Shown: positions 1,704-64,000 of the stretch, piece by piece
Layout of the letters: every line of letters starts with the position of its first letter
Numbering within the stretch: the first letter of the stretch is position 1
DNA from: an uncultured Mycoplasmatota bacterium
GTDB taxonomy: Bacteria; Bacillota_I; Bacilli_A; RF39; UBA660
DNA length: 64,000 nucleotides
Assembly: GCA_900547775.1 (NCBI GenBank)
Contig: URHW01000004.1
Span: 4,806-68,805 of the forward strand
Direction of reading: 5' to 3'
Notes under the pieces: model-generated
Database searches by the model: none
What the model saw: only the letters and a program-made list of their open reading frames with translations
Told to the model about the DNA's origin: nothing
Program-made: the position numbers and the translations under genes

Positions 1704-3578
1704 CTATTTTACAACGTAAGGATCTTCTGAGGTGCCAGAGCCAGTTACTTCAACATTAGATGCAAGAGAAATTGATGGTCTCAAACCGATAACGGAACCA
1801 GCATAACTATAGAAAAGTTTTCCTGAACTGATGGCCCATAAGTAAGTATTAGAACCGAAATAACTAGGAGATAATGACCACCATACAGTAGTTCCTGTAT
1901 TCTCATATATATACGTAGAACGATTATAAGTATTATAAATAGAGCCAGAAAATGCTATTTCGTCTGCAGTTAATAAGCCTATTTTATAGGTTAGATTTCC
2001 ATTACCATTTGTTGTATCACTTACAGTAAATTTAGATAACTTCCCTCCATTATTATCGTCTAGACATTTTAGCGTTGGTATTTTAGTAGAAACTAATCTG
2101 ATACGCACGTCATAATTTGTAAGATCAGTTCCATATCCATGACCACTAGAAATACTTTTATCATTGCACCATATTGTATCTGCTAGTTTACTTTCATATT
2201 CAGTTAAATTATTTTTATACCAAGTTTCTAAATTTGTAAGGATTGTACTTTTATTTGTATTTGCATGCGTGCTTGCATAATCACTTGCACCAGTTGTTCC
2301 ATACATAAAACCAATATATGCGTTATCGTCATAACTTGAATTAAATGCAGTTTTATACGAATTTTCAGAATACCTTGCAAAAGCTGCTGTTTTACTATTA
2401 TTTGATGCAGAGCAAGGATTAGAAACATTAGATATATTATCATTATGGAGTACAAGTTTAATAGAACCATCACCAGTTATTCTTACTATTCTCCAACACT
2501 TATTTGCAAACTGTACGTAATTATTATTTATAGCACCTCTAAAATAATAACTAGTTCCATAATCATCTTCAGCGCTTGCTAAAATTGCCTCTGTTGTATT
2601 TTTATTGGAAGTTAATTTCTTATATACAAAACTATCTGATGTAGCACTTACTACATAATATACACTGTCTAAATTAGTTGTAGTCTGCATATCTCCTGCT
2701 GTACTTGAGCCTGTATCTGATAAATTCTGACTAGTCAAATATTTACCAACTAAACTTGAATATGAATTAGCATATGTATTATTTGTTACTGCTGTTCCGG
2801 TTAAATCAAACTTCGTACCATTTGCTGTCCACCCTGTACCATATGTTACATAATATGCTTGATATGCTGATGATACAGATGAAGTTTCACTTTCTGTGTC
2901 ATCCAAAGTATATGCACTAACTTCACTACCAGGCACTGTTAAAGGCTCTACTACTTTATTATCAGCAAGTATCGCTTCGTTAAGTGGCATTCCATCAGAT
3001 GCTTCACCAATAACTACTATCTTACCCTCCCATGATTTACCTAATCCTTGATCTAGTGTTACATTTTCATCCATCCAAAGTCTTAAATCAAAACTCTTCT
3101 CTTCATTAGCTTGTAACCCTGTATTAACAATTATATACCCTTTTCTATTATTATCTAAATCTGTTAACTTCTTACTACCTAGTACTATAGACTGTCCATC
3201 AGTAGTTCCTTTAGGTGATATATTAACCTTAATATAATTATCATCTAAATATTTTGTTCCTAAATTACCTCTATGTTCACTATCAATTGTAATATATAGT
3301 CTTATATAGCTACTACAATTATTTTTAAGTGTAAAAGTAAATGGCGTTCCTTTCAATCCTTCACTATCAACTACTGGATAAGCATTCTCTAAAACAATCT
3401 TTTCAGTGTTTTCAGTTAAACTAGTATCAAAACAAGTCCTTGATACAAGAGTATTATTATCACTTTGTTTTAAAAACAATTGAAAAAATGCATATGATAC
3501 ACCAATAATACATATCACAGTAACTAAAAGAGAAAAATAAATCCTAATCTTCTTTTTATCTTTAATAATTTCTTCCAT
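1704..3578 (-). CDS. Paralog 1 of a hypervariable-C-terminus surface protein family (membrane-anchored; DUF1566/C-type-lectin-like C-terminal domain inferred)
   Basis: N-terminal signal-anchor. The N-domain (TRTC..TLTE..PFTFTLKNNC..FDLRLW) is shared with 9959-11542 and 19816-21687. The conserved core FANKCWRIVRITGDGS..LHNDN and a C-terminal YWWSLSP..RPSISL cassette are present. Confidence 0.7.
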   Translation of the reverse strand: MEEIIKDKKKIRIYFSLLVTVICIIGVSYAFFQLFLKQSDNNTLVSRTCFDTSLTENTEKIVLENAYPVVDSEGLKGTPFTFTLKNNCSSYIRLYITIDSEHRGNLGTKYLDDNYIKVNISPKGTTDGQSIVLGSKKLTDLDNNRKGYIIVNTGLQANEEKSFDLRLWMDENVTLDQGLGKSWEGKIVVIGEASDGMPLNEAILADNKVVEPLTVPGSEVSAYTLDDTESETSSVSSAYQAYYVTYGTGWTANGTKFDLTGTAVTNNTYANSYSSLVGKYLTSQNLSDTGSSTAGDMQTTTNLDSVYYVVSATSDSFVYKKLTSNKNTTEAILASAEDDYGTSYYFRGAINNNYVQFANKCWRIVRITGDGSIKLVLHNDNISNVSNPCSASNNSKTAAFARYSENSYKTAFNSSYDDNAYIGFMYGTTGASDYASTHANTNKSTILTNLETWYKNNLTEYESKLADTIWCNDKSISSGHGYGTDLTNYDVRIRLVSTKIPTLKCLDDNNGGKLSKFTVSDTTNGNGNLTYKIGLLTADEIAFSGSIYNTYNRSTYIYENTGTTVWWSLSPSYFGSNTYLWAISSGKLFYSYAGSVIGLRPSISLASNVEVTGSGTSEDPYVVK

Positions 3579-9958: not shown

Positions 9959-11542
9959 TTACATACTTATTATGTACGGGGAACTACTGGTTCCTTCTCC
10001 GGTTACGTTGGTAGAGGGCTTAAGAGAAATCGAAGGGCGGACACCGGTGGTGCCATACACGTCGCCACTGCCGAAGCCGCCAAGGCTGCCGACAACGGCC
10101 CAAACGCGAGCGCTGTCACCACTGAAGCTGTAAGGAGACAAGGACCACCAATAATCACTAGTAGCATTTTCTTGTAAATATGTTGTAGAATTAACTAGAT
10201 TAAAAGCGTATCCAGCATATGCTAACTCATCTGCTGTTATTAAACCTATTTTTGAATTTATTTTACTTAGTTCTCCATTACATTTTAAACTAGGGCCCGT
10301 ACCTCCAGCACTTTCACTTGCGCTTACTAATCTTTGCGTAGCACCATAATATGTTTTATTTTTGCCATATCCAAAACCATTTGGTGCCATTCTCCATGGA
10401 TCAAATGTTGTATCTGTTACATTGGTTTTGTCATTGCACCATACAGTATCAGCTATTTTATCAGCATAATCTTTTAAATTATTTGTATACCAAGTTTCTA
10501 AATTAGTTAGTATTGTACTATTATTTGTATTTGCATGTGTAGCTTCATATGTACTAGAACCTGATGTTCCATACTTAAATCCTACATAAGCATTGTCATT
10601 CCAGTTTTCATTAAATTTACTTGTATATGTTGTACTAGAGTATCTTGCAAATGCTGCACTAGCACTATTATTAGCTGAATCACAAGGATTAGCTACTTTT
10701 GTAGTATTATCATTATGTAAGATAAGTTTTACTGAACCATCTCCACTAATTCTTACTATTCTCCAGCACTTATTAGCAAACTGTACATAGTTATTTGTTA
10801 CAGCTCCTCTAAAGTAGTATGATGTACCATTATTATCTTCTGCAGATGCAAGTAATGCTTCATCAGCAGTAGATACTGCTGCTCCTGGTTTAGTTATTGG
10901 AGCCTTAACTTCATTATTAGCTAATATAGTCTCTGCAAAAGTAGGTTCATCCGCAGCAACTATACTAACAACTATCTTACCTTTCCAAGTTTTATTTAAC
11001 CCTTGTTCATTAGTTGTTTCTGAATCTAACCAAAGTCTTAAATCAAAAGATTTTGCTTCTTTATTTTTAAGTCCTGTGGTTTTAAGTACATATCCTTGCG
11101 TATTAGTATCTACTTCCCCTAAAGAAAGTGTACTCAAGATTACTGAACTGCCATCATTAGTCCCTTTAGTTGATAAATTAGATTTAACATAATTATCTTT
11201 TAAATAAGCAGTGTTAGTACTAGTTCTATATTCACTAACTAGTGCTATAGTCACTTTTACATAACTATCACAATTATTAGTTAATGTAAAAGTAAATGGT
11301 GATTGTTTAAGTCCATCTTCATCACTAATTGGAAAAGCATCAGATAATACAATTTCACTTGTCTCTTCTGTTAAAGTGGTATTTAAACAAGTTCTTGTAC
11401 CAATAACATTACTATTAGTTTGAGTTTTAGTAATTCTATAATAAGCATAAGTTACTCCGATAAGTACTAATACAGTTACAAGTAACCCATATAAAATTGT
11501 TCTTTTCTTCTTTTCATTCTCTATAATATCCATTAGCCTCAC
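9959..11542 (-). CDS. Paralog 2 of the hypervariable surface protein family; putative DGR target
   Basis: Same N-domain and core as paralogs 1 and 3, without the roughly 100-aa central insertion. The C-terminal cassette at about 10030-10135 is GC-rich and NNC-codon-rich. Confidence 0.75.
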   Translation of the reverse strand: MRLMDIIENEKKKRTILYGLLVTVLVLIGVTYAYYRITKTQTNSNVIGTRTCLNTTLTEETSEIVLSDAFPISDEDGLKQSPFTFTLTNNCDSYVKVTIALVSEYRTSTNTAYLKDNYVKSNLSTKGTNDGSSVILSTLSLGEVDTNTQGYVLKTTGLKNKEAKSFDLRLWLDSETTNEQGLNKTWKGKIVVSIVAADEPTFAETILANNEVKAPITKPGAAVSTADEALLASAEDNNGTSYYFRGAVTNNYVQFANKCWRIVRISGDGSVKLILHNDNTTKVANPCDSANNSASAAFARYSSTTYTSKFNENWNDNAYVGFKYGTSGSSTYEATHANTNNSTILTNLETWYTNNLKDYADKIADTVWCNDKTNVTDTTFDPWRMAPNGFGYGKNKTYYGATQRLVSASESAGGTGPSLKCNGELSKINSKIGLITADELAYAGYAFNLVNSTTYLQENATSDYWWSLSPYSFSGDSARVWAVVGSLGGFGSGDVYGTTGVRPSISLKPSTNVTGEGTSSSPYIISM

Positions 11543-11780: not shown

Positions 11781-11958
11781 AAGCAGCAAAAAACAGCAAA
11801 AAAGCAGCAAAAAAGCAGCAAAAAAACAGCAAAAAAACAGCAAAAAGCAGCAAAAAAGAAGCAAAAAACAGCAAAAAACAGCAAAAAGTAGCAAAAAAAC
11901 AGCAAAAAGCAGCAAAAAAACAGCAAAAAACAGCAAAAAAACAGCAAAAGTAGCAAAA
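11781..11958. repeat. Tandem A-tract repeat (about 16 units of cagcaaaaaa(c/g), 10-12 bp period)
   Basis: Direct reading. Phased A5-7 tracts lie between the stop of 11962-13632 and the promoter region of paralog 2. Confidence 0.9.
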
Positions 11959-11961
11959 CTA

Positions 11962-13632
11962 CTACTTCAATTTCCAACAAGAATGACCTGATTTATTATC
12001 ATGATAAATTTTTCCTTCTTTCTTCAATAAATCTAATAGATACCTAACTCGGCTTAGTTTAGTGCCTTCATCTAATGAATTAGGTAACTTATCTTTAAGT
12101 AAAGAAATAATTTCTTTTCTACTTGCTGAACCATATTCTTTTATATATTTAATTATTAGTTCCATATAAAACTCATTTTCTAATCCAGAATTATAAACAT
12201 ACTCTTCCTTCTTTTCTGTTAAGCTAGCAAGACTTGATGAAATATAAATGTTTGGATATCTTCCTTCAATTAAATGTTCTTTTTTTAGATAATCACTTTG
12301 CTCTTTACTTATCGTATATCTCTTTTGTAATCTATCAAGTAATATTATTGCACTAATATCTAAGTTAGTTCTTTCAAATAACAATCTACTATAATTTTCA
12401 TCAATTATTTTTCCATATAATGTTACAATAACTCGGTTAGAATTACTTAAATCATAATCAGGCATTGGAAAATATTTTTTCTTTTGAATATCATAAACTC
12501 GTTTAATTCCACTACCAACTGTATCTATCATATTCAAATTAACCATCGCACTTATTAAAAAAGGATTCCTATAATATGGAGAAGAATATCCATCTTTTAA
12601 AACGTTCTCAATTGTTTCCGGAATAAAACTGCCTTCATTTATGATCATCAATCTATCTGAATATTCAATTATATTAATGTTTCCATGAAGTCTGTAATCT
12701 TGATGAGCAATACAATTATTAATTAACTCACGAAGAATATAATTATCATACTTATCTACTTCATAAGGAAATAAAGTTGCATCACTAATCATGTATCTAT
12801 ACTTTAAATTTCTAATCTTAGATTTTATTTTATCAATATTAATAATAAAAGGTATTCCAAAATGTTCATAATCAATCACATTAAAATCATCATAAAGTTT
12901 CCACGTCATTCGTGGAATATATCCTTCCATCAAATAATCATAATCACTATTTCCTAAAAGCAACATACAAGCCATAGTTATCTTATTATTAATTGTTAAT
13001 CTTGCTTTATTTAAAAATTCAATATCAGTCAAATTATCAACTTCATCTATTAATTTATCATCTTTATGTTTAACTTTAAATTGTTCTCTAGCAACTTTAA
13101 TTGCACCTTTATCAAGATTATCTATTGTAGTTTCTTCAAGAACTTGTCTTGACCAATCATAATTTATAGTAGTTTTAATTTGTTCAATCTTATTTAGTGA
13201 TAAAGGAGATAATGATTCGCCTATTCTTCCATAAGGAAACCCTTTCCAATTAATTGGAGTTCCAGAGGCGGCTGGTACTTGAAACATTATCACTCTTTTA
13301 CCATTAACAACAATTGTATAAATTTCAATAAAACTTATATTATCCGTAGTATTATCAGAAATTTGTTTTTTCACCTTATTAAAATCATTATCTATGCAAT
13401 AATTAGTACTAGTTAACTCATGTGTTTTATCATCAACACCAAATATTATCCAAGAATAAAGTTTGTTTTTTAAATTAGCTTCATTAGCTAAAGCTGAGAA
13501 ATATTTTCCTAAGGTATCAACATCAAAATTATTCTTAGCTCTTTTAAACTCAACACATTCATTTTCAGAAACTTTTAATAGATTACTTAATATTACAAGT
13601 AGCTCCTCAGTTGTCTTATACAAACTTATCAC
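11962..13632 (-). CDS. AlbA_2 (Schlafen-like) plus HATPase_c_4-type putative transcriptional regulator
   Basis: 556 aa. The N-terminal divergent AAA-4/AlbA_2-like region (ECVEFKRAKNNFD) is followed by an ATPase-like region and a C-terminal wHTH-like tail. Confidence 0.5.
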   Translation of the reverse strand: MISLYKTTEELLVILSNLLKVSENECVEFKRAKNNFDVDTLGKYFSALANEANLKNKLYSWIIFGVDDKTHELTSTNYCIDNDFNKVKKQISDNTTDNISFIEIYTIVVNGKRVIMFQVPAASGTPINWKGFPYGRIGESLSPLSLNKIEQIKTTINYDWSRQVLEETTIDNLDKGAIKVAREQFKVKHKDDKLIDEVDNLTDIEFLNKARLTINNKITMACMLLLGNSDYDYLMEGYIPRMTWKLYDDFNVIDYEHFGIPFIINIDKIKSKIRNLKYRYMISDATLFPYEVDKYDNYILRELINNCIAHQDYRLHGNINIIEYSDRLMIINEGSFIPETIENVLKDGYSSPYYRNPFLISAMVNLNMIDTVGSGIKRVYDIQKKKYFPMPDYDLSNSNRVIVTLYGKIIDENYSRLLFERTNLDISAIILLDRLQKRYTISKEQSDYLKKEHLIEGRYPNIYISSSLASLTEKKEEYVYNSGLENEFYMELIIKYIKEYGSASRKEIISLLKDKLPNSLDEGTKLSRVRYLLDLLKKEGKIYHDNKSGHSCWKLK

Positions 13633-13737: not shown

Positions 13738-16700
13738 TTAACTCTGAGTTCCATCATTTGTTTCTACTGTTATATCATAATCTGTATCATAATAGTAATT
13801 ACTAAATAAAACATTTGAATTATTAATAACTGTTCTTATACCTAAGTCTCCTCTACCATATATAGCGTTTCTTTCAATAGATTTAACACTATCAGTTAAA
13901 GTTATTGTCTTAAGTATAATATTATTCATAAGTGCATAACTACTAATATTTTCTGCATCTATTACATATTCTAACTTCTCATAATAACTAGGAACACTTA
14001 TTAAAGTCGTACCATCCTTATTAAACAATACTCCATCTCTGCTACTATAATTATTATTATCAGCACTAACTATAAATTTATTTATATTTAGGTTTATTCT
14101 TGATTCTATACTAGTAACAGAGCTTGGCACACTTAAACTCATCTTCTTATCATCAGCACTTACTAATCCATTTAATGAGTCATATATAATTCTCGTTGTT
14201 CCTTCTCTAATTTGTACATCTCCTTCAAGTTTATCAGGAACTAAAATAAGTGTATCCCCATTATATAATATATTATTTTCTACTTCTAAAGTACTTGCTT
14301 TTATTTCTTTAAAGTTAACTCCCCTAAATGGTGCTATACCTACATAAGCATTTCCTATATCAGCACTCTTACCCTTAAAGTTATAAAACGCATAATCTCC
14401 AATAGTTTGAACACTTCTAGGAATAACAATATCACCTAAACTACTATCTATAAAAGCATAATCTCTAATATATTCTAAGCCTTCATTAAATGTTATATTA
14501 CTTAAACTAGTATTTGTACTAAAAGCATACTGCTCAATAGTTCTAACCGAACTTCCTATAGTAACACTAGTAAGACCTAAATTATTAGCAAATGCTCTCT
14601 TACCAATCTTTTCACTATTAACATTAAGCATCTTTAAACTAGTACTTTCAAAGGCCGATGTTCCAATAGATTTAACACTTGATGGAATATTAATATTAGT
14701 AATACCAGTTCCATAAAATGCATTATTACCAATACTACTAACATTATTCCCAATAACAATATTATTAATTTGGCTCGCATAATTATCCCAAGGAGCGCTT
14801 ATAAAATCTTGCATATCTCCGGTTCCATACACGCTTAATGTATAACCATTACTTCCATCTATCACTTTGTTACTATATAAAAATGCGATTACATCTTCTT
14901 TATTATTCTTACCGATCTTATAATAATTCACATATTCATGCTCTGCACTTACTATCTCACTAGTAGTACGCTTTTGATTAACTAAGCCATATATATCTCT
15001 AACTGCACCATCACTTAAAGTTAATGTAAATAGTCCATAATAATTATTTGCTTTTACCACTACTTCAAATCGGTATCCATTAGTAATATCTTTAACCTTA
15101 GTAACACTATCAACTAAAACACCATTACTAGCACTAATCATACCCTTATCAAGAGATGCACTAGCAAGTCCTCCACCAATATCCGTACATTCCAAATACG
15201 CCTTACCAGTTCCATAAATATCACTTGGTACATCAGTAAACATACAACTAGGTGCTGGATTATCTGCAATAGCATAATAAGTAGTTCCTTTATTTCTACT
15301 ATTAATTGTAACTGTACTTCCAATATTTTTAATGTTTCCACCACTAGGACTTGTACTCCATCCCTTTTTAGTTATTCCATCTGGAACACTAAAGTCAGGT
15401 AATGTAACTGTGCATCCTGAACCTAACCTACTTTCTGTACAAGTAAGTGTTGTCTCACCAAGAGTTCCATAAGTTCCCCCATTTAAATTAATTTGAAATA
15501 CATTAGTAACATATATAGGTATTCTAAGTTCTCCACAATCTGCACCTTTAATAACTAAATATGTAGTTCCAGTTCTGTATGATCTTATCTTTATCTTATC
15601 AGTAAACACCTTATTAATATTATCAGGTTCATATGAGAAATTACTTTGTGATACCACATTAACACTTGCTGTCCAACTATTACTAACACTATAACTAAGT
15701 TTGCCAGTAGCAGCATAACTAATTGTAATCTCTGCACTTTCCCTATTAACACCTAAAGTAATTGAATTTAGATTACTTTTTAAAGAATAAACATTATAAT
15801 CAAGTTCAGCAAGTCTATTACCATTATTTTCTCTTAAGTAAATAACTGCTTTACCCGTATTAGTTCTTCCTAACTTATAAGGAAGACTACTATCATACTG
15901 CGTACTAGTAACATTATGTCTTACTAATGACATCTGTCCATATCTTCCACCATTATTGGCACAATTATTACTTAAACTAATCGCTGGCTGACTAGGATTA
16001 TTACCTAAATCTACTAAATAATAATCAGTCATACTATCAAACACTATATTATTCTTCGTACTATCACAAGTCTTACCACTACTATCTAATACTCCCAAAT
16101 TAATCCCATGAATTGTAATGGTATTATTACTAAGATCAGAACCAACCTCTTTACACACTTTAGTAACCGTATTATTATTCTCTCTAAAATATAAACTTGT
16201 CTTATAAATAACTGGTATAAATATATCTAATGAGCCATCTCTTACACTCTTAACATTAACTTTAAAATCTTCTACATTATCATAAATATCTTCACCATTA
16301 GTGGTCTCTAAAATAACTGTATCATTTTCTATATGACAATTTAAATAATCAGTATTTTCTTCATATCCACCATAAGTACTTTTCTTATAAACAGTGCAAG
16401 TAAAATCATTACTAGAGCTTCCGTTTATCTTAGACTTAAACTGTGTCTTATCATTATTTTGTCTTCTTCCCCCATTAAAATATAAATATTCTGGTATATC
16501 TGTATTATCTAATTTAATATTTGAAACATTAACCTCAAAACTAGTTTCACCACAAATTGATCCTTTTATTCTAATGGTAACAGTTCCAATACTATTTCCT
16601 TTTATATAAAAGTAATTCTGATTATTTAAAGTTATTGTACTTCCAAATGAACTATTATTTGCTGATATACTAGCAGCACTACTATCAACTGATACAGTAA

Positions 16701-17769
16701 TTCTTCCTGTACCACCAGCCTTAAGTTCTACTCTCTTAGCAGCCTCACCTACAATAACATTCGTAATATGCGTTACTACATCTAAATCATAAACTTCTCT
16801 AGTTATAACCTTACTAATACCTGCATGATCTTCAGTTATCGTAAAACTTTTCTCACCTGTACTAGTACCACTATTCATATATAGAACGTCTCCCTTTATA
16901 GTAGCATTCAAATCATCACTAATCCCACTAAGAGAAAACTCGCCATAATTCTTCCCCGTAATCCTAAAAAGTTCATTAGTAAGTGTTTTCATACACATCT
17001 TAGGTGTATATCCATCTATATCATAATTAACAACATACACCCCTAAATTCATATGTCGATATAACTTCTTTTCTGCTCCTTCATCATCTCTGTATGTACC
17101 AGTTACTTGTACTTGATAATTTCCATCACTTCCAGTACCATTATCATTTAAAGTAATAACTAAATCATCACCAACAACTTTACAACTAAATGGACCTGTC
17201 GCTTCACATGTAATACTTTTAAAAGTTCCTTTAGTATAAATCTTAGTTTTAAATTCCTCATGAAGTCCCCAATAAAAATCTTTCTTTGTAGTTCCTAAAT
17301 TAAGTGAATAATTACCATCAACTGCTGGACATGAATAATTCTTATTTTTTATATCATAAAAAGTAGCACTTATCGTTACTGTAGATGGATCATAACATAA
17401 AAGAACATTACCACTGAGTCTTCCACCAGTAACTGGATTGCCAACATAACTAGCATCATCTTTAGTAGTATCATACTCTAAATAACCTAGACCTACTAAA
17501 TCATCAACACTTATTATGCACTCATCATACGCATCATCATTAATAACTCCAGATTCTAACCCATTAGTACACTTCTGATAAGTATTAATATTATCTTCAC
17601 CATACTTAGAAGCACTAGTTTCAATAGTACTAATCTTAGAATTTAAAATACTCTCTTTTGTATTTTTTGAAATATTAGTAACCGCTGGTATCAAAATAAC
17701 CATAATAATTGCAAGTATTGTAATAACTGCAAGAAGTTCCACCATTGTAAAACCCTTATGGTTCTTCAT
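13738..17769 (-). CDS. Giant prepilin-type N-terminal domain protein with Ig-like middle region and C-terminal BspA-type leucine-rich repeats
   Basis: N-terminus MKNHKGFTMVELLAVITILAIIMV is a class III signal. The C-terminal 350 aa carry repeated IPSSV.SIG..AF LRR_5-like units. Confidence 0.75.
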   Translation of the reverse strand: MKNHKGFTMVELLAVITILAIIMVILIPAVTNISKNTKESILNSKISTIETSASKYGEDNINTYQKCTNGLESGVINDDAYDECIISVDDLVGLGYLEYDTTKDDASYVGNPVTGGRLSGNVLLCYDPSTVTISATFYDIKNKNYSCPAVDGNYSLNLGTTKKDFYWGLHEEFKTKIYTKGTFKSITCEATGPFSCKVVGDDLVITLNDNGTGSDGNYQVQVTGTYRDDEGAEKKLYRHMNLGVYVVNYDIDGYTPKMCMKTLTNELFRITGKNYGEFSLSGISDDLNATIKGDVLYMNSGTSTGEKSFTITEDHAGISKVITREVYDLDVVTHITNVIVGEAAKRVELKAGGTGRITVSVDSSAASISANNSSFGSTITLNNQNYFYIKGNSIGTVTIRIKGSICGETSFEVNVSNIKLDNTDIPEYLYFNGGRRQNNDKTQFKSKINGSSSNDFTCTVYKKSTYGGYEENTDYLNCHIENDTVILETTNGEDIYDNVEDFKVNVKSVRDGSLDIFIPVIYKTSLYFRENNNTVTKVCKEVGSDLSNNTITIHGINLGVLDSSGKTCDSTKNNIVFDSMTDYYLVDLGNNPSQPAISLSNNCANNGGRYGQMSLVRHNVTSTQYDSSLPYKLGRTNTGKAVIYLRENNGNRLAELDYNVYSLKSNLNSITLGVNRESAEITISYAATGKLSYSVSNSWTASVNVVSQSNFSYEPDNINKVFTDKIKIRSYRTGTTYLVIKGADCGELRIPIYVTNVFQINLNGGTYGTLGETTLTCTESRLGSGCTVTLPDFSVPDGITKKGWSTSPSGGNIKNIGSTVTINSRNKGTTYYAIADNPAPSCMFTDVPSDIYGTGKAYLECTDIGGGLASASLDKGMISASNGVLVDSVTKVKDITNGYRFEVVVKANNYYGLFTLTLSDGAVRDIYGLVNQKRTTSEIVSAEHEYVNYYKIGKNNKEDVIAFLYSNKVIDGSNGYTLSVYGTGDMQDFISAPWDNYASQINNIVIGNNVSSIGNNAFYGTGITNINIPSSVKSIGTSAFESTSLKMLNVNSEKIGKRAFANNLGLTSVTIGSSVRTIEQYAFSTNTSLSNITFNEGLEYIRDYAFIDSSLGDIVIPRSVQTIGDYAFYNFKGKSADIGNAYVGIAPFRGVNFKEIKASTLEVENNILYNGDTLILVPDKLEGDVQIREGTTRIIYDSLNGLVSADDKKMSLSVPSSVTSIESRINLNINKFIVSADNNNYSSRDGVLFNKDGTTLISVPSYYEKLEYVIDAENISSYALMNNIILKTITLTDSVKSIERNAIYGRGDLGIRTVINNSNVLFSNYYYDTDYDITVETNDGTQS

Positions 17770-17779
17770 AAAATCACCT

Positions 17780-18316
17780 CTATTCTGCTATCTTAAAATA
17801 AATATTAGATGTAAAATCATTTCCATTAGAAGCAAGCATTTTAACCCTTAACTCCCTAAGACTAGTATTTTCAAACTCCTTATAATTAACAAAATCATTC
17901 TCATCTATTATTGCTCCATCAGGAACTTTACGCACAAAATTACGTGTCCTCTCATCACTAGTTAAATTATTATTAACATATTCATATTTAATATATCTTG
18001 CATCATCAGTTAATGATAACTTCTTTACAATAAGTTCATTTAAATTACCTTCCCTAAAAGCATTAAAAGTAATTGTAACACTTTTCTTCCCATCTAAACT
18101 CACACTCTTGACTCCATATCTATTAATATCCGTACTAATCGTATCAATTAAAATGGTATCTAATACTTCAAAATCAACTTCTAACTTACTCTTCTTATAT
18201 AACCCATTAACTGTAATTAATAATCTTGTAATAAAAATAAGAATAATTGACACAAGCACAATAGATACAATAATCTCAACAAGAGTCATCCCCTTCTTAT
18301 TCATCACTATCACCAA
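17780..18316 (-). CDS. Pseudopilin (prepilin-type N-terminal domain)
   Basis: N-terminus KKGMTLVEIIVSIVLVSIILIF. It overlaps the upstream gene by 20 nt. Confidence 0.7.
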   Translation of the reverse strand: MVIVMNKKGMTLVEIIVSIVLVSIILIFITRLLITVNGLYKKSKLEVDFEVLDTILIDTISTDINRYGVKSVSLDGKKSVTITFNAFREGNLNELIVKKLSLTDDARYIKYEYVNNNLTSDERTRNFVRKVPDGAIIDENDFVNYKEFENTSLRELRVKMLASNGNDFTSNIYFKIAE

Positions 18317-18806
18317 ACCTTAATGAAGCATACTGATAAATAGTCGGATTATTATTATAATTATTCTCATCTACATACATAACAATAATTCTATAACCAC
18401 TTTCCTTAGTTGGATCTAACTTCTTTATATAATTCTGTGTAGTAGCCTCTAAATCAGATAACTCCCCACTATTAATATCACTAGTAAACCACTTAGTAAA
18501 ATAAATAGAATTTATTCTCATATTAGTAACTAATGATTTAAAATAAGTATCACCCTTACCTAAACAATCACTATTACCCTGACAATAAATATACACACTA
18601 GAGCCATCATAACCATTAAACCCACTATCTTCAAAATACTCTTTAACTAAATTAGTCTTATAAATATATTCTGTATTATCATAATAACTCTTTCTTTGTA
18701 CAGCACTAATAACATTCATATAACCACCATAAAGCATAATTAAAAGCACACACAAAACAAGAATAACTACAATTGTCTCTACTAAAACAAAACCCTTATT
18801 CTTCAT
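18297..18806 (-). CDS. Pseudopilin (prepilin-type N-terminal domain)
   Basis: N-terminus MKNKGFVLVETIVVILVLCVLLIM. Confidence 0.7.
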   Translation of the reverse strand: MKNKGFVLVETIVVILVLCVLLIMLYGGYMNVISAVQRKSYYDNTEYIYKTNLVKEYFEDSGFNGYDGSSVYIYCQGNSDCLGKGDTYFKSLVTNMRINSIYFTKWFTSDINSGELSDLEATTQNYIKKLDPTKESGYRIIVMYVDENNYNNNPTIYQYASLRFGDSDE

Positions 18807-19815: not shown

Positions 19816-21687
19816 TTAATTTATAATATAAGGATTATCACTCGTACCATTACCAGTTACGCTGGTCGAAGATATAAGAGAAATGGCCGGGCGAACACCA
19901 GTGTCGCCGTCAATGTTGCCGTCGCGCAAGTCACCCGAGCGCACGCCCCGATCGAGAGTGATGATGCTATCGAAGTAGCTAGGCGACAAGGACCACCACC
20001 AATTCGTCCCAGTATTTTCTTGTAAATATGTAGAACGATTATAATAACCAGATACCGACCCAGCAAATGCTATTTCATCTGCAGTTAATAATCCTATTTT
20101 ATAAGTTAAGTTACCATTACCATTCTTTGTATCATCAACAGTAAATTTAGATAATTTTCCACCATTATTATCATTTGGACATTTTAATGTTGGCTGTTTA
20201 GTGGAATCCAATCTATTATATGCAGCATAATTTGTATACTCTGTCCCATAACCTAATCCTCCACTTACTGTACTTTTATCATTACACCAAATTGTATCAG
20301 CTAGTTTATCTTCATATGGTGCTAAATTTTTTGTATACCATATCTCCAAATTTTTTAGTATTGTACTTTTATTTGTATTTGCATGTGTACTTGCATAATC
20401 ACTTGCTCCAGCAGTACCATACATAAATCCTACATAAGCATTATCATTATGGTTTGTATTAAATGCACTTTTATATGTTTCACCAGAGTATCTTGCAAAT
20501 GCTGCATTAGTACTATTATTTGCTGATGAACAAGGATTAGCTACTTTTGTAGTATTATCATTATGAAGAACAAGTTTTACTGAACCATCGCCTGTTATTC
20601 TTACTATTCTCCAGCATTTATTAGCAAATTGTACATAATTATTTTTTACTGCCCCTCTAAAGTAGTAAGATGTTCCATAATCATCTTCTGTACTAGCAAG
20701 TAATGCTTCTGTTGTATTTTTATTTGATGTTATTTGTTTGTACGTAAAACTGCTTGATGTAGCGCTTACTACATAATATATACTGCTTAAATTAGTGGTT
20801 GTTGTCATTGATCCTGCAGTACTTGAACCAGAACTTGATAAAGAACTATATGGCAAATATTTTCCAACTAAGCTTGAATATGAATTAGCATATGTATCAC
20901 TTGTTACTGCAGTACCAGTTAAATTAAAGTTTGTCCCATTTGCTTCGTATCCAGTACCATAAGTTATATAATATGCTTGAGATGTTGATAATACACTTGT
21001 TGACTGACTTTCAACATCATCTTTAGTATGAGCATTTACTTCTTTTCCTGGTGTTGTAAGTGGTGATTTTATCTCGTTATTTGCAAGTATTGCATCTTTC
21101 AATGTAACCTCTTCATTAGCAGCTACTCCAACAACGACTATCTTACCTTCCCAGTTCTTATTAAGTCCATCTGCAATAGATGTTTCACCATCCATCCATA
21201 CTCTTAAATCGTAACTTTTCTCTTCATTTGCTTTAAGTCCAGTAGTTACTAAAATATAACCTTTATTTGTGCCTTCCAATTCAGTTAAAGTCTGACTTCC
21301 AAGAAGCACGGAAGAGCCATCAGTCGTTCCTTTGCTAGATAAATTAACTTTTAAAAAACTATCCTTTAAGTATGCTACATCAGTACTTGTTCTATACTTA
21401 CTATCAATCGTAATATACACTTTAACATAACTATCACAATTATTTTTTAAAGTGAATGTAAATGGTGTTTGTTTAAGACCATCTTCATCACTTATCGGAA
21501 AAGCATCACTTAAAGTTATTTTAGATGTTTCTTCAGTAAGCGTTGCATCTAAACAAGTTCTAGTTCCAATAACATTACTATTAGTTTGCGTTAATTTCAA
21601 TCTAAACCAAGCATAACTTACACCCATAAAAACAACTAAAGTTATAAGTAATCCATAATAAATTTTTATTTTCTTTTTATCTTCCAT
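19816..21687 (-). CDS. Paralog 3 of the hypervariable surface protein family; putative DGR target
   Basis: Full-length architecture like paralog 1. The C-terminal cassette at about 19890-19985 is GC-rich and NNC-rich. Confidence 0.75.
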   Translation of the reverse strand: MEDKKKIKIYYGLLITLVVFMGVSYAWFRLKLTQTNSNVIGTRTCLDATLTEETSKITLSDAFPISDEDGLKQTPFTFTLKNNCDSYVKVYITIDSKYRTSTDVAYLKDSFLKVNLSSKGTTDGSSVLLGSQTLTELEGTNKGYILVTTGLKANEEKSYDLRVWMDGETSIADGLNKNWEGKIVVVGVAANEEVTLKDAILANNEIKSPLTTPGKEVNAHTKDDVESQSTSVLSTSQAYYITYGTGYEANGTNFNLTGTAVTSDTYANSYSSLVGKYLPYSSLSSSGSSTAGSMTTTTNLSSIYYVVSATSSSFTYKQITSNKNTTEALLASTEDDYGTSYYFRGAVKNNYVQFANKCWRIVRITGDGSVKLVLHNDNTTKVANPCSSANNSTNAAFARYSGETYKSAFNTNHNDNAYVGFMYGTAGASDYASTHANTNKSTILKNLEIWYTKNLAPYEDKLADTIWCNDKSTVSGGLGYGTEYTNYAAYNRLDSTKQPTLKCPNDNNGGKLSKFTVDDTKNGNGNLTYKIGLLTADEIAFAGSVSGYYNRSTYLQENTGTNWWWSLSPSYFDSIITLDRGVRSGDLRDGNIDGDTGVRPAISLISSTSVTGNGTSDNPYIIN

Positions 21688-21694
21688 ATTTCAC

Positions 21695-23011
21695 CTACTT
21701 ACTCTTAATTAATGGACTAGTCACAGTTGTCCTAACCATAATATCATTTCCATTCTCATCAACCTTTTCATTCTCTATCGGTTTACTAGAATCATAATAA
21801 GAAAGTACCATTTTTGGATATGCAAGTGATGTATCTCCATTAACATCAAATAAATTAATCCAAGAAGTATCATTTGCTTCCAATACCTCATTTAAAGATA
21901 AACCTCTATCCTGTGAAAACTCACTTAACTTACTCTTAGCACTAGTAGTTCCCCAATTATATGCACAAAGTGCTGCTGGTACATTATAATCCATATTAAC
22001 CAAACAATTCTGAAAATACATACAAGCAATCTTTATATTAGTATCAAGTTCTCTAATATTACTATCAGTAACATGAAAAGTCTCCCAAGAAGAAGTATCA
22101 AAATTATACGCTTTAACATCCTGATTTACCCAAACGGCATACTGCATTTGCATAAGACCTACTCCACCGCCTGGATCAATCTCTGTACTATGTACTCCCT
22201 TTTCTTGTGTTGCTATCGCCATTATCAAATCTTTATCTATTCCATAAGTTTTAGCATACTTGCTAACTAACTCATAATAATTTTCTTTTGCATTAACTGC
22301 TTTCTCATCGCTAGTTCTATCACTAAAATCAATATTAAAATTCTGATAAATAGTGTCTTTTTCTTCCACTAACTGTGCAAGTAACTCTCCATTAGTTGGT
22401 TCCTTATTTTCTGCTTCTTCTACATCTAATAAACTTATCATCTGCGTATCCATTAAAAGTTTATCATATCCTGGATCTTTTTCCTCTGTACTCGGCTGCG
22501 CACTTATCTCTTGATCCTCAGTTTCATTTAAATATTTTTCCACACTATCATGATTAACTTCTTCCATCCAAGTTGCACTAACACTAGGAGTAAAAGGATC
22601 CTCAAACTCTTTAAGTTTATGACCAATACTTAAAACAGATACCATAATAAGAAGAACCATAAGTCCCTTAGTAATTGTCCCAGTCTTAGATACCCTTTTA
22701 GCTTTCCTACTACCATTCATATACTTACTAGCCCTACTAGCATTATACTTATCTACTTTTTTTCTAGCATCTACTCTTTCAAATACCTGCTTATAATCCT
22801 TAATAAAAATAACTCTATCAGAATAAACAACTCTTATAACCTTTCCATCTTTACTAATTCTAGCATCAGTAGCATTTCTTCTTTCTACTTCATTTAAAAA
22901 TTTCTTCGCTTCATCACCAAAAAAGATATTACTATAAGAACTATCAGTATAACTATTATAATACTTAGTCGTTAATCTATTTCTATCACAGCAAACAACT
23001 ATTTTGTCCAT
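21695..23011 (-). CDS. Membrane-anchored lytic transglycosylase (SLT domain)
   Basis: An N-terminal cytoplasmic region and a TM segment (LMVLLIMVSVL) are present. The SLT motifs are E...GLMQMQ, AYN.G. Confidence 0.7.
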   Translation of the reverse strand: MDKIVVCCDRNRLTTKYYNSYTDSSYSNIFFGDEAKKFLNEVERRNATDARISKDGKVIRVVYSDRVIFIKDYKQVFERVDARKKVDKYNASRASKYMNGSRKAKRVSKTGTITKGLMVLLIMVSVLSIGHKLKEFEDPFTPSVSATWMEEVNHDSVEKYLNETEDQEISAQPSTEEKDPGYDKLLMDTQMISLLDVEEAENKEPTNGELLAQLVEEKDTIYQNFNIDFSDRTSDEKAVNAKENYYELVSKYAKTYGIDKDLIMAIATQEKGVHSTEIDPGGGVGLMQMQYAVWVNQDVKAYNFDTSSWETFHVTDSNIRELDTNIKIACMYFQNCLVNMDYNVPAALCAYNWGTTSAKSKLSEFSQDRGLSLNEVLEANDTSWINLFDVNGDTSLAYPKMVLSYYDSSKPIENEKVDENGNDIMVRTTVTSPLIKSK

Positions 23012-31463: not shown

Positions 31464-33395
31464 ATGAATTACAAAAAAACATTATTATCAATTATCTATA
31501 TTTATTATTTAGAACTAATATATCACTTATTTATATTTAAATCTTTTACCATAAAAGAATTTTTATTTTTAACCCTATTTACCATTTTATTCGGTATATT
31601 TAATGACCTAATAACTAGTCTCTTTAATAAAAAAGTAAATAAATGGTTATTTATCTCTATAAATGTTTTCCTAAGTATTTTATTTATCGCTCAAGTAATA
31701 AACTTTAAATTCTACGGAAACATTATAAGTATCTACTCAGTAGTTCATGGAGGACAAGTATTTGGCTTCATGGGAGCAATCATCTCTGTTATTCTTAAAA
31801 ATATTCCATGTGTTCTTTTATTACTAATCCCCGCAATCTTACTACTAGTATTTAATAAACATATCAAGGCGGATGGCCTTAACTACAAAAACACTCTTAT
31901 CAAAACCTTAGTATTTGTAGGTCTATTTACAATCTGCACTCTTACTTTAAACATTGACAAGAAAGACATCTACTCTGCTAAAAACTTATATTATTACAAA
32001 CACGCACCTAATCAATCTGCTAAAACATTTGGCATCCTAACAACAATGCGTATTGATTTAGAAAGAATAATTCACTTTAAAGAAAAAACTATAGACGTTT
32101 TCACTGAGGACACAACCGAAGAAGAAAAACCGGCCGTTAAAAATATCGAATATAACAAAGAGGACATTGATTTTGCCGCTCTAGCAGAATCAGAAACAAA
32201 CGAAGAAATCAAAAATATTCATCTATACATGAATAATCAAGAGGCTACCGAAAAAAATAAATATACTGGTATGTTTGAAGGCAAAAATCTAATTGCTATA
32301 ACGGCTGAAGCCTTTTCGCCTCTTGCAGTTGATAAAGACTTAACTCCAACTCTATACAAACTAGTTCATGAAGGATTTAACTTTACCAATATGTACTCAC
32401 CTATCTATTATGTTAGTACATCCGATGGTGAATATGTTACTTTAACAAGTCTCCTACCTAAAGAAAGTGTCTGGTCTTTCTATAAATCAAGTAAAAATTA
32501 TCTGCCTTATGTCTATGGAAACATCTTTAAAAAATTAGGATACTCAGCATACGCTTTTCATGATGGACAATATAAATATTATGATCGTAACCTATCACAT
32601 CCAAATATGGGATACACCTATATGGCATGTGGTAATGGCTTACAAAAACTAATGAACTGCAAAAAATGGCCTCAAAGTGATATAGAAATGATTGACGCAA
32701 CATTTAATATGTATAAAGATGAAGAAAAATTTGTAACCTATTACATGACAATATCTGGTCACTTAGAATATAACTTCTACGGAAATAATATGGCTGCTAA
32801 AAACAAATCCCTTGTTGAAAATACTAACTACAGTACTGCCGTAAAAGCATATAAAGCAACACAAATTGAACTAGATCGTGCACTTGAAAAACTATTAACA
32901 AAACTAAAAGATAATAACTTACTTGACAAAACAGTCATCGTCCTATCTGCAGACCACTATCCATATGGCCTAACAAACGATGAAATAAATGAAGTAACCC
33001 CACTTACTAATCCAAAATTCGATATTCACAAAAACAATCTAATCATCTGGTCATCAGACATCAAAGAACCAATTAAAGTAGATAAACTAGCTGAAAGCCT
33101 AGACATCCTTCCTACAGTTTTAAACCTATTTGGAGTTAAATTTGACTCAAGACTTCTAATGGGTAGAGACATCCTATCAAACGCTGATGGACTAGTTATC
33201 TTAAATGATCGTTCATGGATAACTGAAAAAGGCTTTTATGATGCAAGCACCAATAAATTTACCAAAACAACTGACGAAGAATTACCAGAAAACTATGTTG
33301 ATAAAATAAGCACAATCGTCTATAACAAATTCGTAATATCAAAAAATATCTTAGAAACAAACTATTATAAATATGTATTTAAGGAGGAAGCATGA
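31464..33395 (+). CDS. LTA synthase family protein (LtaS-like sulfatase-domain)
   Basis: 5 N-terminal TM segments plus an extracellular alkaline-phosphatase-superfamily domain. Confidence 0.7.
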   Translation: MNYKKTLLSIIYIYYLELIYHLFIFKSFTIKEFLFLTLFTILFGIFNDLITSLFNKKVNKWLFISINVFLSILFIAQVINFKFYGNIISIYSVVHGGQVFGFMGAIISVILKNIPCVLLLLIPAILLLVFNKHIKADGLNYKNTLIKTLVFVGLFTICTLTLNIDKKDIYSAKNLYYYKHAPNQSAKTFGILTTMRIDLERIIHFKEKTIDVFTEDTTEEEKPAVKNIEYNKEDIDFAALAESETNEEIKNIHLYMNNQEATEKNKYTGMFEGKNLIAITAEAFSPLAVDKDLTPTLYKLVHEGFNFTNMYSPIYYVSTSDGEYVTLTSLLPKESVWSFYKSSKNYLPYVYGNIFKKLGYSAYAFHDGQYKYYDRNLSHPNMGYTYMACGNGLQKLMNCKKWPQSDIEMIDATFNMYKDEEKFVTYYMTISGHLEYNFYGNNMAAKNKSLVENTNYSTAVKAYKATQIELDRALEKLLTKLKDNNLLDKTVIVLSADHYPYGLTNDEINEVTPLTNPKFDIHKNNLIIWSSDIKEPIKVDKLAESLDILPTVLNLFGVKFDSRLLMGRDILSNADGLVILNDRSWITEKGFYDASTNKFTKTTDEELPENYVDKISTIVYNKFVISKNILETNYYKYVFKEEA

Positions 33396-34504
33396 ATATA
33401 AAAGAAAGAATGCTATTAAGAGAAAAATTCTATAGTCCATTTGCTACAAAAGACAAAGAATCAATAAGACTAATACCTATAGAAGAAGACATTAGACCAA
33501 ACTTTTTTAGAGATATAGACCGTATTATCCATAGTACATCTTACACAAGATATATGGACAAAACTCAAGTTTTTTCTCTAAAAGACAATGACAACATTTC
33601 CAAAAGAATGGTTCATGTACAATTAGTATCTAAAATAGCTCGCACCATCGGTAGAGCTCTATCACTAAACGAAGATTTAATTGAAGCTGCTGCTCTAGGT
33701 CATGACTTAGGACACGTCCCATTCGGTCATGAAGGAGAAAGAATATTAAATAAAATTAGTCTTAAACATAACGAAGGATATTTCAATCATAACGTTCAAA
33801 GTGTAAGAGAACTAATGGATATTGAAAATGACGGAGAAGGCATCAACCTATCAATTCAAACCCTAGATGCTATCCTATGCCATAATGGAGAACTTGAACT
33901 TAAAGAATACCATCCAAAAAAGAAAACAACTGATGAATTCTTACAAGACTATGAAAATTGTTATAAAATTGAAGGATACATCAAAACACTCATCCCAAAC
34001 ACTTTAGAAGGATGTGTTGTTAGAATAAGCGACATCATCGCCTATCTTGGAAGAGATATTGAAGACGCTGAACGTCTTAATCTAATAAAAAAAGAAGACC
34101 TACCAAAAGAAATAACTGACATTATTGGTTCAACCAACAAAGAAATAGTAAATACATTTATAATGGATATCATAAATAATAGTATAGACAAACCTTATCT
34201 TAAAATGAGTGATAACGTTTTCGAAGCACTAAAAAAGCTAAAAAAATTCAACTACGAAAACATCTACTCAAAAGCAAACACCAAAGAAGAACTCACTGAA
34301 TATGAAAACATGTTTGAAAGCCTATTTAACCATCTACTAAAAGACATTAAAGACAACAACACAGATAGTAACATCTACAAAATATTTATAAAAAATAAAA
34401 ATGAAAAATATAGGCAAAATACCCCAGAAAGAATTGCTATTGATTACATTGCAGGTATGACCGATGACTTCTTCTTAAAAGAATATAAAAAATATGAGAA
34501 CTAA
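33392..34504 (+). CDS. HD-domain dGTP triphosphohydrolase-like protein
   Basis: GHDLGHVPFGH HD motif. Confidence 0.75.
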   Translation: MNIKERMLLREKFYSPFATKDKESIRLIPIEEDIRPNFFRDIDRIIHSTSYTRYMDKTQVFSLKDNDNISKRMVHVQLVSKIARTIGRALSLNEDLIEAAALGHDLGHVPFGHEGERILNKISLKHNEGYFNHNVQSVRELMDIENDGEGINLSIQTLDAILCHNGELELKEYHPKKKTTDEFLQDYENCYKIEGYIKTLIPNTLEGCVVRISDIIAYLGRDIEDAERLNLIKKEDLPKEITDIIGSTNKEIVNTFIMDIINNSIDKPYLKMSDNVFEALKKLKKFNYENIYSKANTKEELTEYENMFESLFNHLLKDIKDNNTDSNIYKIFIKNKNEKYRQNTPERIAIDYIAGMTDDFFLKEYKKYEN

Positions 34505-47755: not shown

Positions 47756-49045
47756 CTAATTTACAACATAAGGTTTTTCCCTCGTACCATTTCCGGTTAC
47801 GTTGGTCGTCGATTTAAGAGAAATCGAAGGACGAAGCCCGTAGGCGTTGCTCACGTTGAAGCCGACACCTTGTCCGCCAATGCCCCAAACGCTAGCGTTG
47901 CCGCCACGGAAGCCGTCAGGAGACAAAGACCACCAATAAGTGGCTGTAGCATTTTCTTGTAAATATGTTGTAGATACATTTTTATTATAAGCATATCCTG
48001 CAAACGCTAGTTCATCTGCTGTTATTAATCCTACTTTTGATGTTATTTTACTTAGTTCTCCATTACATTTTAAACTAGGGCCCGTGCCTCCAGCACTACC
48101 ACTAGTACCTACTAATCTCTTGGTAGCGCCATAATATGTTTTATTTGTACCATATCCTAATCCAGTTGCATTTCCACCATATGACCATGGATTATAACTT
48201 GTATCTGTTACATTTGTTTTATCATTACACCATATACTATTATCTATTACACTTTCATATGCTGTTAGATTATTATTATACCATGTTTCTAAATTAGTTA
48301 GTATTGTACTCTTATTAGTGTTTGCATGTGTAGCTTCATATGTACTAGAGCCTGGTGTTCCATACTTAAATCCTACATAAGCATTATCATAATAGTTTGT
48401 ATTAAATGCACTTTTATATGTTTCACCAGAGTATCTTGCAAATGCTGCACTTGCACTATTATTTGCAGCATCACAAGGATTAGCTGCTCCAGTTGGATTA
48501 TCATTATGTAAGATAAGTTTTACTGAACCATCTCCACCAATTCTAACTATTCTCCAGCACTTATTAGCAAATTCTACATAGTTATTTGTTACTGCACCTC
48601 TAAAGTAATAAGATGTTCCATAATCATCTTCTGCAGATGCAAGTAATGCTTCATCAGCAGTAGATACTGCTGCTCCTGGTGTGGTTATTGGAGTCTTTAC
48701 TTCATTATTTGCAAGTATTTTATCTTTAAATTTCAGATTAAATGAAACATTGCACCTCACATTACCAGCACTTATATCATTAAAAGACACTACCCATTTT
48801 GTGCCATTCCATGTAGCCTTTGCTCCTGCGTCTTGTTTTATTCCATTTCTAGTACACTCTACAGTTGCCATATACTTATTTGTAGTTGGAAATGTAGTAC
48901 TAGCTTTTCCATCAATAACAGCTGCTATGATAGGTCCATTATTATCTTCTAGTAAATCTTTTTTATCACTTTTACCATATATAAACATTCCAGAAATAAT
49001 TATCGTGCATACAATAATTAAACTAATTATTTTCTTCATATTCAT
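47756..49045 (-). CDS. Paralog 4 of the hypervariable surface protein family (distinct short N-domain); putative DGR target
   Basis: Shares the core (FANKCWRIVRIGGDGS) and C-terminal cassette. The N-terminal 110 aa are different. The cassette at about 47830-47925 is GC-rich and NNC-rich. Confidence 0.75.
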   Translation of the reverse strand: MNMKKIISLIIVCTIIISGMFIYGKSDKKDLLEDNNGPIIAAVIDGKASTTFPTTNKYMATVECTRNGIKQDAGAKATWNGTKWVVSFNDISAGNVRCNVSFNLKFKDKILANNEVKTPITTPGAAVSTADEALLASAEDDYGTSYYFRGAVTNNYVEFANKCWRIVRIGGDGSVKLILHNDNPTGAANPCDAANNSASAAFARYSGETYKSAFNTNYYDNAYVGFKYGTPGSSTYEATHANTNKSTILTNLETWYNNNLTAYESVIDNSIWCNDKTNVTDTSYNPWSYGGNATGLGYGTNKTYYGATKRLVGTSGSAGGTGPSLKCNGELSKITSKVGLITADELAFAGYAYNKNVSTTYLQENATATYWWSLSPDGFRGGNASVWGIGGQGVGFNVSNAYGLRPSISLKSTTNVTGNGTREKPYVVN

Positions 49046-63239: not shown

Positions 63240-64000
63240 TTATTGTACTACATATGGTTCTTCTGAAGTACCAGAACCGATTACTGTAATTGATGGTGAC
63301 AAACTTATTGCTGGGCGTACTCCGATTTCGTCACTCACACTATCATTAAGCAACATGCCGTCAATAACAAGCCAAACGCATGGCATATTTCCCAAATCAG
63401 AATCAGGAGACAACAGCCACCAATAATCATCAGTAGCATTTTCTTGTAAATAAGAACCAGCTCCAATTAAATTATATGCGTACCCAGCAAATGCTACCTC
63501 ATCTGCGGACAATAAACCTATCTTTGTTGTTACTTTACTTAAAGTACCATTACATTTCAAACTCGGACCAGTACCACCAGTACTACCACCACCATTAACT
63601 AATCGTTTAGTGGGATTATAATAAGTTACATTTTCACCATAACCCAAACCAGTTGGATTCCAACCCCATGGATCATATGTCAAATCTGTCACAATACTTT
63701 TATCATTACACCATACCGTGTCAGCAATTTTACTTTCATAAGTTAATAAATTATTATTATACCATTTTTCTAAACTGGTAAGTATCGTACTTTTATTTAT
63801 GTTTTCATGAGTTTCAGCGTAACTAGTAGAGTATGGCGTTCCATACATAAAGCCTATGCCAGCATTATCATCAGAGATTTCATTAAATTGACTTACATAT
63901 GAAGTTCCAGAATATCTTGCAAACGCTGAAGTTGTACTATTACTAGAAGAAGAGCACGGGTTTGAAACATTTGAAGTATTATCATTATGAAGCACTAATT
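63240..64000 (-). CDS. Paralog 5 (C-terminal part; gene continues beyond window) of the hypervariable surface protein family
   Basis: Shares the LHNDN..NPC..AAFARYS core. The C-terminal cassette is degenerate (WLLSP, MPCVWLVIDGMLLND). Confidence 0.65.
   Translation of the reverse strand, partial: LVLHNDNTSNVSNPCSSSSNSTTSAFARYSGTSYVSQFNEISDDNAGIGFMYGTPYSTSYAETHENINKSTILTSLEKWYNNNLLTYESKIADTVWCNDKSIVTDLTYDPWGWNPTGLGYGENVTYYNPTKRLVNGGGSTGGTGPSLKCNGTLSKVTTKIGLLSADEVAFAGYAYNLIGAGSYLQENATDDYWWLLSPDSDLGNMPCVWLVIDGMLLNDSVSDEIGVRPAISLSPSITVIGSGTSEEPYVVQ

Follow-up and report, generated by a model that had tools for sequence, protein, structure and literature searches.

The 64,000-nucleotide stretch analysed here, positions 4,806 to 68,805 of contig URHW01000004.1 from an uncultured Mycoplasmatota bacterium and referred to below as the window, contains five paralogous genes, p1 to p5. 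A short GC-rich cassette close to the 3' end of p4 is probably a dormant or relic variable region (VR) that owes its sequence to a chromosomal diversity-generating retroelement (DGR) located beside polC in the same species. A DGR origin is proposed because the differences between this cassette and the template repeats (TRs) of that element show a highly significant bias towards template adenines (Fisher p about 4e-7 to 6e-6). The claim of dormancy is limited to p4 not being rewritten in the sampled lineage. The parts of p4 to which the text refers are the following.

47756..49045, minus strand: p4 gene, coding for a 429-amino-acid membrane-anchored protein of the paralog family (open reading frame and translation, family alignment)
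47840..47917, minus strand: VR-like cassette DGFRGGNASVWGIGGQGVGFNVSNAY, 26 codons, between WWSLSP and GLRPSISL
47918..47935, minus strand: 5' homology arm TGGTGGTCTTTGTCTCCT, coding for WWSLSP, with no difference from the 5' arm of the L014-type TR
47806..47839, minus strand: 3' boundary GGGCTTCGTCCTT, resembling an initiation of mutagenic homing (IMH) sequence, with an inverted repeat coming next
47779..48665, minus strand: allele-specific interior, with about 85% identity to p2 (breakpoints from Megablast comparison with L035, L030 and L037)

The cassette of p4 and the prediction of its template

Seventeen of the 26 codons of the p4 cassette are of the form NNC (17/27 with GGG added) and its GC is 0.63, as against 5% NNC codons and GC 0.33 in the remainder of the gene. 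Over the whole window the NNC fraction is 0.048 among 19,011 codons, with GC of about 29%, and at this window-wide rate the binomial probability of finding at least 17 NNC codons in 26 is about 7e-17. When 17,811 sliding windows of 26 codons were counted, more than 11 NNC codons were found in p2, p3 and p4 only. Counts of 10-11 occurred in two plus-strand genes, yet with GC of about 0.3, and reflect a strand compositional bias. Strand asymmetry is strong throughout the window: nearly all genes lie on the minus strand, GC skew of the plus strand is negative along its whole length, and in the few plus-strand genes (31464-34504, as opposed to the rest) about 20% of codons are NNC, compared with about 5% in minus-strand genes. 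The database gene call for p4 has 427 amino acids and starts at 49039; an exact-protein look-up of the 429-amino-acid form gave no match, the database protein starting at another codon.

The five window paralogs share WW(S/L)LSP, a segment of 26-29 variable residues and G(V/L)RP(S/A)ISL. Besides p4 they are the following.

1704..3578, minus strand: p1 gene; loop at 1788-1865, AT-rich, with no template relationship left; NNC 7/26
9959..11542, minus strand: p2 gene; cassette at 10046-10132, a canonical 29-codon type-A VR; NNC 19/29
19816..21687, minus strand: p3 gene; cassette at 19900-19980, a 27-codon type-B VR; NNC 17/27
63240..64000, minus strand, running off the window: p5 gene; loop at 63324-63404, with no template relationship; NNC 5/27

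An earlier reading of this DNA from its letters alone (the sequence-only reading) had singled out the p4 segment as a textbook DGR cassette. The minus-strand sequence that it quoted is present exactly as given; its count of 17/27 NNC codons, its codon pairs with p2 and the identical scaffold codons GCT, GTT, TGG and TTC are all correct; and the GC enrichment is real, although the figure of about 55-60% is slightly below the measured value. As a textbook example p2 is the better choice, p4 being 3 codons short.

With a short pseudopilin gene located between p2 and p3 as the query, ten conspecific syntenic strains were retrieved, which have five cassette alleles at the p2 locus and four at that of p3. 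The six canonical 29-codon alleles have variable sites distributed 20/18/11 over codon positions 1/2/3, with the consensus nnC nnC TTC nnT GGn nnC nnn GCT nnC GTT TGG nnn GTn nnn GGC nGC nnT GGn nnC TTn nnC .... Their scaffold codons show no differences, not even synonymous ones, while their flanks differ by 11-17%; this argues for repeated overwriting from a common template in which the variable codons are AAC. From the window-family cassettes alone a TR-specific pattern (GCTAANGTTTGGAANGTTAANGGCAGC) was built. Among 185,579 species representatives the pattern matched exactly one record (L013). The footprint had been attributed by the sequence-only reading to adenine-specific mutagenesis of an AAC-rich template, and such a template, with AAC at the variable codons, was indeed found. 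A DGR VR is thus recognisable in raw sequence from its NNC-codon and GC footprint, and the template can be predicted from paralogs well enough to locate the retroelement elsewhere in the species.

Within the window, sensitive blastn (word size 7) recovered the five paralogs only and no TR-like sixth copy, and neither a reverse transcriptase (RT) nor an Avd gene was found in Pfam scans of about 30 open reading frames (ORFs), the rest being covered by the precomputed annotation of the identical contig L001. The TR pattern had 0 matches in viral contigs, which leaves a phage-borne element, also considered, without evidence.

The retroelement beside polC and the decay of its targets

On one strand of the L013 locus, the VR-bearing 3' end of a family member is followed by a non-coding TR, a MutS-like (MSL) ORF, an Avd-like ORF and the RT, in this order. 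The TR reads AAC AAC TTC AAT GGC AGC AAC GCT AAC GTT TGG AAC GTT AAC GGC AGC TCT GGC AAC TTC AAC AAC AAC AAC GTG AAC AAT ACC AAC. The RT, of 328 amino acids, matches RVT_1 (E=1e-13), has the motifs IGNMTSQ and YMDD, and stays far under cutoff with the models for group II introns, retrons and DRT. The Avd-like ORF (117 amino acids), found in the related loci and outside the window, matches NCBIfam DivGenRetAVD (E=7.7e-6, positions 16-104 of 104) and Pfam bAvd (E=0.005), both under the curated cutoffs. The MSL ORF (120 amino acids; MutS_I E=1e-6, MutS E=6e-5) is present in every DGR locus fetched. The element is chromosomal. Its place is directly upstream of polC, where it occurs in two flanking contexts and with several TR variants; 10/10 polC contexts sampled contained it. 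An Mbeg1-like gene always follows it, and in one context a ToxN-type toxin gene also precedes polC (L013 3883-5847; L014-L024).

The VR of L013 differs from its own TR at 16 sites, of which 16/16 are TR adenines, with 0 mismatches at the 54 other sites. Adjacent VRs gave A-site/non-A counts of 16/0, 18/0, 21/0 and 23/0. Hypervariation across strains holds for this DGR-adjacent VR: eleven strains with one identical TR (A') have 11 distinct adjacent VRs, with 206 A-site against 2 non-A mismatches. The remote p2 locus has 22 A-site and 0 non-A mismatches in L004 and 16/0 in L005, each against a different TR variant; such copies can be recent products of writing, or recent copies of the adjacent target made by recombination. 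Indels of 1 nt in the DGR-adjacent VR of two strains (L019 8162-8250; L020 8165-8209) frameshift the target, leaving 471 instead of about 520 amino acids, and one of these strains (L020) is the source of the contig that links the DGR with the p4 locus.

A second, related DGR adjoins spoIVA; its RT is 61% identical to the first and its TR has 27 codons (L025 8938-9062). At least in the species complex there are two DGRs, with TRs of 29 and 27 codons, each matching its own paralog subfamily and seen on separate contigs. The p3 scaffold TCG GGT nnC TTG matches the TR of the second element; thus, the window carries VR types from two different retroelements.

The element was linked to the species of the window through several contigs. 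Records L001 and L010 match the window with 100% identity, the former over 22 kb and the latter over 20 kb, and therefore belong to the same strain. ENA contig_13135 (1,145,030 bp) carries the polC-side DGR at 32-53 kb (L020) and also, at 1.017-1.029 Mb, a window-syntenic block of GH31, LeuRS, the p4 locus, DUF5684 and TK (L035). The flanks of this block are 96.4-98.1% identical to the window, so that the organism of contig_13135 is of the same species; the distance from the DGR to the p4 locus in this conspecific genome is about 1 Mb. A 1.2-Mb scaffold with the second DGR likewise bears a window-syntenic block of TyrRS, SLT, the p3 locus and pseudopilin genes (L050). The expectation that a template would sit next to a YxDD-type RT and a small Avd-like ORF was thus borne out in the same species, on the chromosome that carries the p4 locus in a conspecific genome; the window itself has no RT and no TR.

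Comparison of the five window cassettes with the TRs gave the following counts.

10046-10132, minus strand, p2 against TR-A' (best TR): 23 A-site mismatches; 3 non-A in the cassette and 5 over the full unit; no gaps
19900-19980, minus strand, p3 against TR-B of L025 (second DGR): 22 A-site; 6-8 non-A; 2 end columns gapped over the full unit
47840-47917, minus strand, p4 against TR-A variants: 19-23 A-site; 6-8 non-A; a 9-nt deletion in the AAC run
1788-1865, minus strand, p1 against TR-B: 20 A-site; 32 non-A; 5 gap columns
63324-63404, minus strand, p5 against TR-B: 19 A-site; 29 non-A; 4 gap columns

The adenine bias is gone in p1 and p5 (p5 Fisher p=0.47). The share of p4 mismatches that fall at template adenines is about 70-79%, compared with 99% in active VRs; this share, together with the 9-nt deletion, falls short of the more than 90% anticipated by the sequence-only reading. 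The five cassettes are visible stages in a gradient of decay, with p2 first, then p3 and p4, then p1 and p5. The window is thus a natural series of VRs, from freshly written to fully decayed, usable for the study of how remote targets are gained by recombination, kept up and lost.

At the DGR, the boundary is laid out as ...CCTTCGATTTCTCTTAAGTCGACG on the VR side and ...CCTT-ATTTTCTCTTAAAT on the TR side. At the level of sequence, three features were found: a GC-rich IMH-like 3' boundary of the VR, an IMH* on the TR that differs from it, and an inverted repeat that lies downstream of the VR alone. In p4 the inverted repeat TCGATTT-CTCTT-AAATCGA (about 47809-47827) has a perfect 7-bp stem, and the TRs have no hairpin. 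The IMH-like boundary of p4 is 1 base off the 3' arm of the L039 TR (GGGGTTCGTCCTT) and has 4-5 mismatches to the L013 boundary. By analogy with the Bordetella and Legionella DGR model (PMC5758913), we infer that this 3' boundary would act as an IMH. Downstream of the p2 cassette (10005-10045) the sequence is AAGCCCTCT, as against AAGTCGACG or AAATCGACG in adjacent VRs, perfect remote VRs and p4. The change breaks the 3' arm of the VR-side inverted repeat (KPST vs KSTT; compared with L021 8247-8290), and disruption of the hairpin arm may be the reason for the few non-A mismatches in p2.

By the mechanism established for DGRs, the non-coding TR would be transcribed and copied to cDNA by the RT, with Avd and the MutS-like accessory protein, misincorporating opposite template adenines. 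The cDNA would then replace the homologous VR between the WWSLSP-coding arm (5') and the GC-rich IMH-like sequence with its hairpin (3'). The expected outcome is that, where a DUF6273-type domain has its C-terminal end, AAC codons become NNC codons while the scaffold F-G-A-VW-V-GS-G-F-V stays fixed.

Past and present writing of p4

The DNA of the p4 cassette is identical in L001, and the cassette is unchanged in 10/12 of the next-closest orthologs (P0002-P0013, 91-99% identical overall). Across the 12 orthologs, 4 changes lie inside the cassette and 130 outside it; the two variants, an R insertion in P0009 and DK and I changes in P0013, are not of the adenine type. Ongoing hypervariation was thus absent at p4 in the same strain and in the 12 orthologs, and the heterogeneity at this site that the sequence-only reading had suggested looking for did not appear in either. 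A DGR-like codon footprint does not, accordingly, imply current hypervariability, and some caution is needed in reading one.

The first 380 nt and the last 23 nt of p4 are orthologous to a non-VR allele of the same locus, which in nine other strains is a 543-amino-acid allele with the same N-terminus and an ordinary AT-rich loop. The interior between them (47779-48665) is probably an imported, recombinant p2-like segment. The p4 VR would have come into the locus on this segment and would have gained its non-adenine substitutions after the last writing, the 3-codon deletion having arisen then or at the writing itself.

An unlikely alternative is that p4 is a live remote target, rewritten on occasion by the polC-side DGR or by a variant TR. 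The deletion and the non-A changes would then come from non-canonical DGR mutagenesis, for instance from RT slippage within the (AAC)4 run. In its favour, every one of the 10 polC contexts sampled contained the DGR, and the 5' arm, IMH-like boundary and hairpin of p4 are intact or nearly so. Some non-phage DGRs also have remote targets that are more than 100 kb away, and true DGR VRs with AAC indels and about 7 non-A differences have been described (PMC5758913). What speaks against rewriting is the constancy of the cassette in 10/12 orthologs whose remainder differs by up to 7-9%, the two variants again not being A-type. Moreover, a 26-codon TR occurs in none of roughly 25 TR-bearing loci, and active VRs have 0-1 non-A mismatches versus 6-8 in p4. 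A broader proposal would have one or two MSL/Avd DGRs acting in trans, over up to about 1 Mb, on a dispersed DUF6273 family with live, dormant and dead VRs, p4 being competent but rarely rewritten and its 9-nt deletion due to RT slippage in (AAC)4; we regard this too as doubtful.

Some of the observations weigh against a relic p4 written by the polC-side element, or at least soften that conclusion. The intact 5' arm, near-intact boundary and perfect hairpin mean that p4 may have kept its competence for homing. Bona fide VRs are reported to have indels opposite AAC runs and occasional changes at non-A sites (PMC5758913), and the 9-nt deletion of p4 need not therefore mean decay. In a metagenome scan, the JGI sample with the identical strain yielded no contig bearing a TR; presence of the DGR in the exact strain of the window is likely, by extension from its conspecifics. 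The perfect VRs at the p2 locus could be recombination copies rather than the result of writing in trans. Finally, a test of activity by identical flanks around different cassettes proved unusable, the gene bodies being too polymorphic even at the DGR-adjacent target, whose body is 74-93% identical between strains.

Recombination or gene conversion between paralogs, as in pilin-type shuffling, is a less probable explanation still if taken alone. According to it, no DGR ever wrote p4 at this locus, and the 3' half of the gene, with its VR, came from a p2-like copy or from one next to the DGR. The p2-like interior of p4 within ends orthologous to a non-VR allele agrees with such an event; reassortment of alleles between strains is seen at the p2 and p3 loci, with identical cassettes in diverged flanks, and about 45 nt beyond the stop codon are common to the p2 locus and the DGR-adjacent target. 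Recombination alone, however, cannot make the AAC-to-NNC pattern or the identity of the scaffold to a non-coding template. It accounts for the arrival of the cassette and not for its origin, and is compatible with a DGR origin of the p4 VR.

The notion that no retroelement was involved, the NNC stretch deriving from Gly/Ser/Asn/Asp composition, selection or a patch from a high-GC donor, fits a loop rich in Gly, Ser and Asn in a window that holds neither RT nor TR, but it is hardly credible and was effectively refuted by the discovery of the TR. Gly, Asn, Asp and Ser codons elsewhere in the genome have T or A at the third position (NNC 4.8%), the AAC template that had been predicted does exist beside an RT, and the adenine bias of p4 is significant (p about 1e-6).

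The target domain, related systems and neighbouring genes

The C-terminal domain of p4 is weakly DUF6273-like, and is best described as a divergent, sub-threshold relative of that family rather than of DUF1566, the domain named by the sequence-only reading. The match of p4 to DUF6273 (PF19789) reached 16.1 bits against a cutoff of 23.5 bits (E=0.01, profile positions 113-172 of 172); matches were obtained in 5/29 relatives, the best with E=2.5e-6, and some database homologs carry a precomputed PF19789 annotation. A PDB profile search with the p4 domain detected no relative, and an AlphaFold2 model of it was unusable (mean predicted local distance difference test score 34). In published work, DGR VRs have been placed at the C-terminus of DUF6273, a domain modelled as C-type-lectin-like. 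By extension from those models, p4 may share a C-type-lectin fold.

The system is of an already known kind, a chromosomal MSL/Avd DGR with dispersed remote targets, of which p4 would be a dormant member. The closest likeness in gene organisation is to Architecture D DGRs (MSL and avd; Wu et al. 2018, PMC5758913), which have the same order of target, TR, MutS-like ORF, Avd and RT, mismatches of A-to-N type only, IMH and IMH* that differ at the 3' boundary of TR and VR, and an inverted repeat on the VR side only. The loci described here share with them a small MutS-like ORF plus avd and the absence of HRDC. They differ in that the Avd and MSL matches are weak (under curated cutoffs), that two related DGRs with different TR lengths occur, and that the p4 cassette is away from the element and is not a clean VR.

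The DGR of Treponema denticola (TvpA and seven remote targets) is likewise chromosomal, with dispersed paralogous surface proteins as targets. It uses HRDC where MSL is found here; in the present species, by contrast, many remote copies are decaying, and writing in trans is suggested by perfect TR matches in two strains. Some targets of non-phage DGRs lie more than 100 kb from the RT (PMC5758913), a distance that is about 1 Mb here. The DUF6273 or C-type-lectin-like targets of gut phages (tentaclins; Faecalibacterium prophage) also have the VR at the C-terminal end of the domain. The targets described here are instead chromosomal, N-terminally membrane-anchored and 430-650 amino acids long, lying among type IV pseudopilin genes and not phage tail genes, and the DUF6273 match of p4 is sub-threshold. 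A hypervariable surface-protein family has thus been identified in a very common, uncultured, low-GC bacterium of the human gut; one window protein was found in more than 4,000 assembly blocks.

Genes for type IV pseudopilin-like proteins (N_methyl motif) are interleaved with p2 and p3 at 7522-9243, 13738-17769 and 17780-18806. The cluster includes a 1343-amino-acid BspA-type leucine-rich repeat protein, and an SLT transglycosylase gene lies at 21695-23011. This arrangement suggests that the paralog family may work with a pilus-like surface apparatus.

A tandem array at 11746-11970, between the stop of a Schlafen/AlbA_2 gene and the start of p2, consists of about 16-20 units of 10-11 nt (AAAAAGCAGC, plus strand) and gives phased T-tracts on the coding strand. 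Its length is 41, 113, 165 or 176 nt in different strains, and in two strains that share the same p2 allele the array differs by one unit. The array may provide curved DNA or a phase-variable promoter spacing. Strains without the Schlafen gene are also without the array. This gene (AlbA_2 and HATPase_c_4, 11962-13632) forms a variable islet beside p2 and is absent or replaced in L004, L005, L007, L008 and L011; an exact-protein look-up of its 556-amino-acid product gave no match, for which a differing start call (GTG start) is assumed to be the cause. Beside p1, at 3646-5492, an RloB-like gene is paired with an AAA_21 gene (AbiEii/OLD-type ATPase), a candidate defence module.

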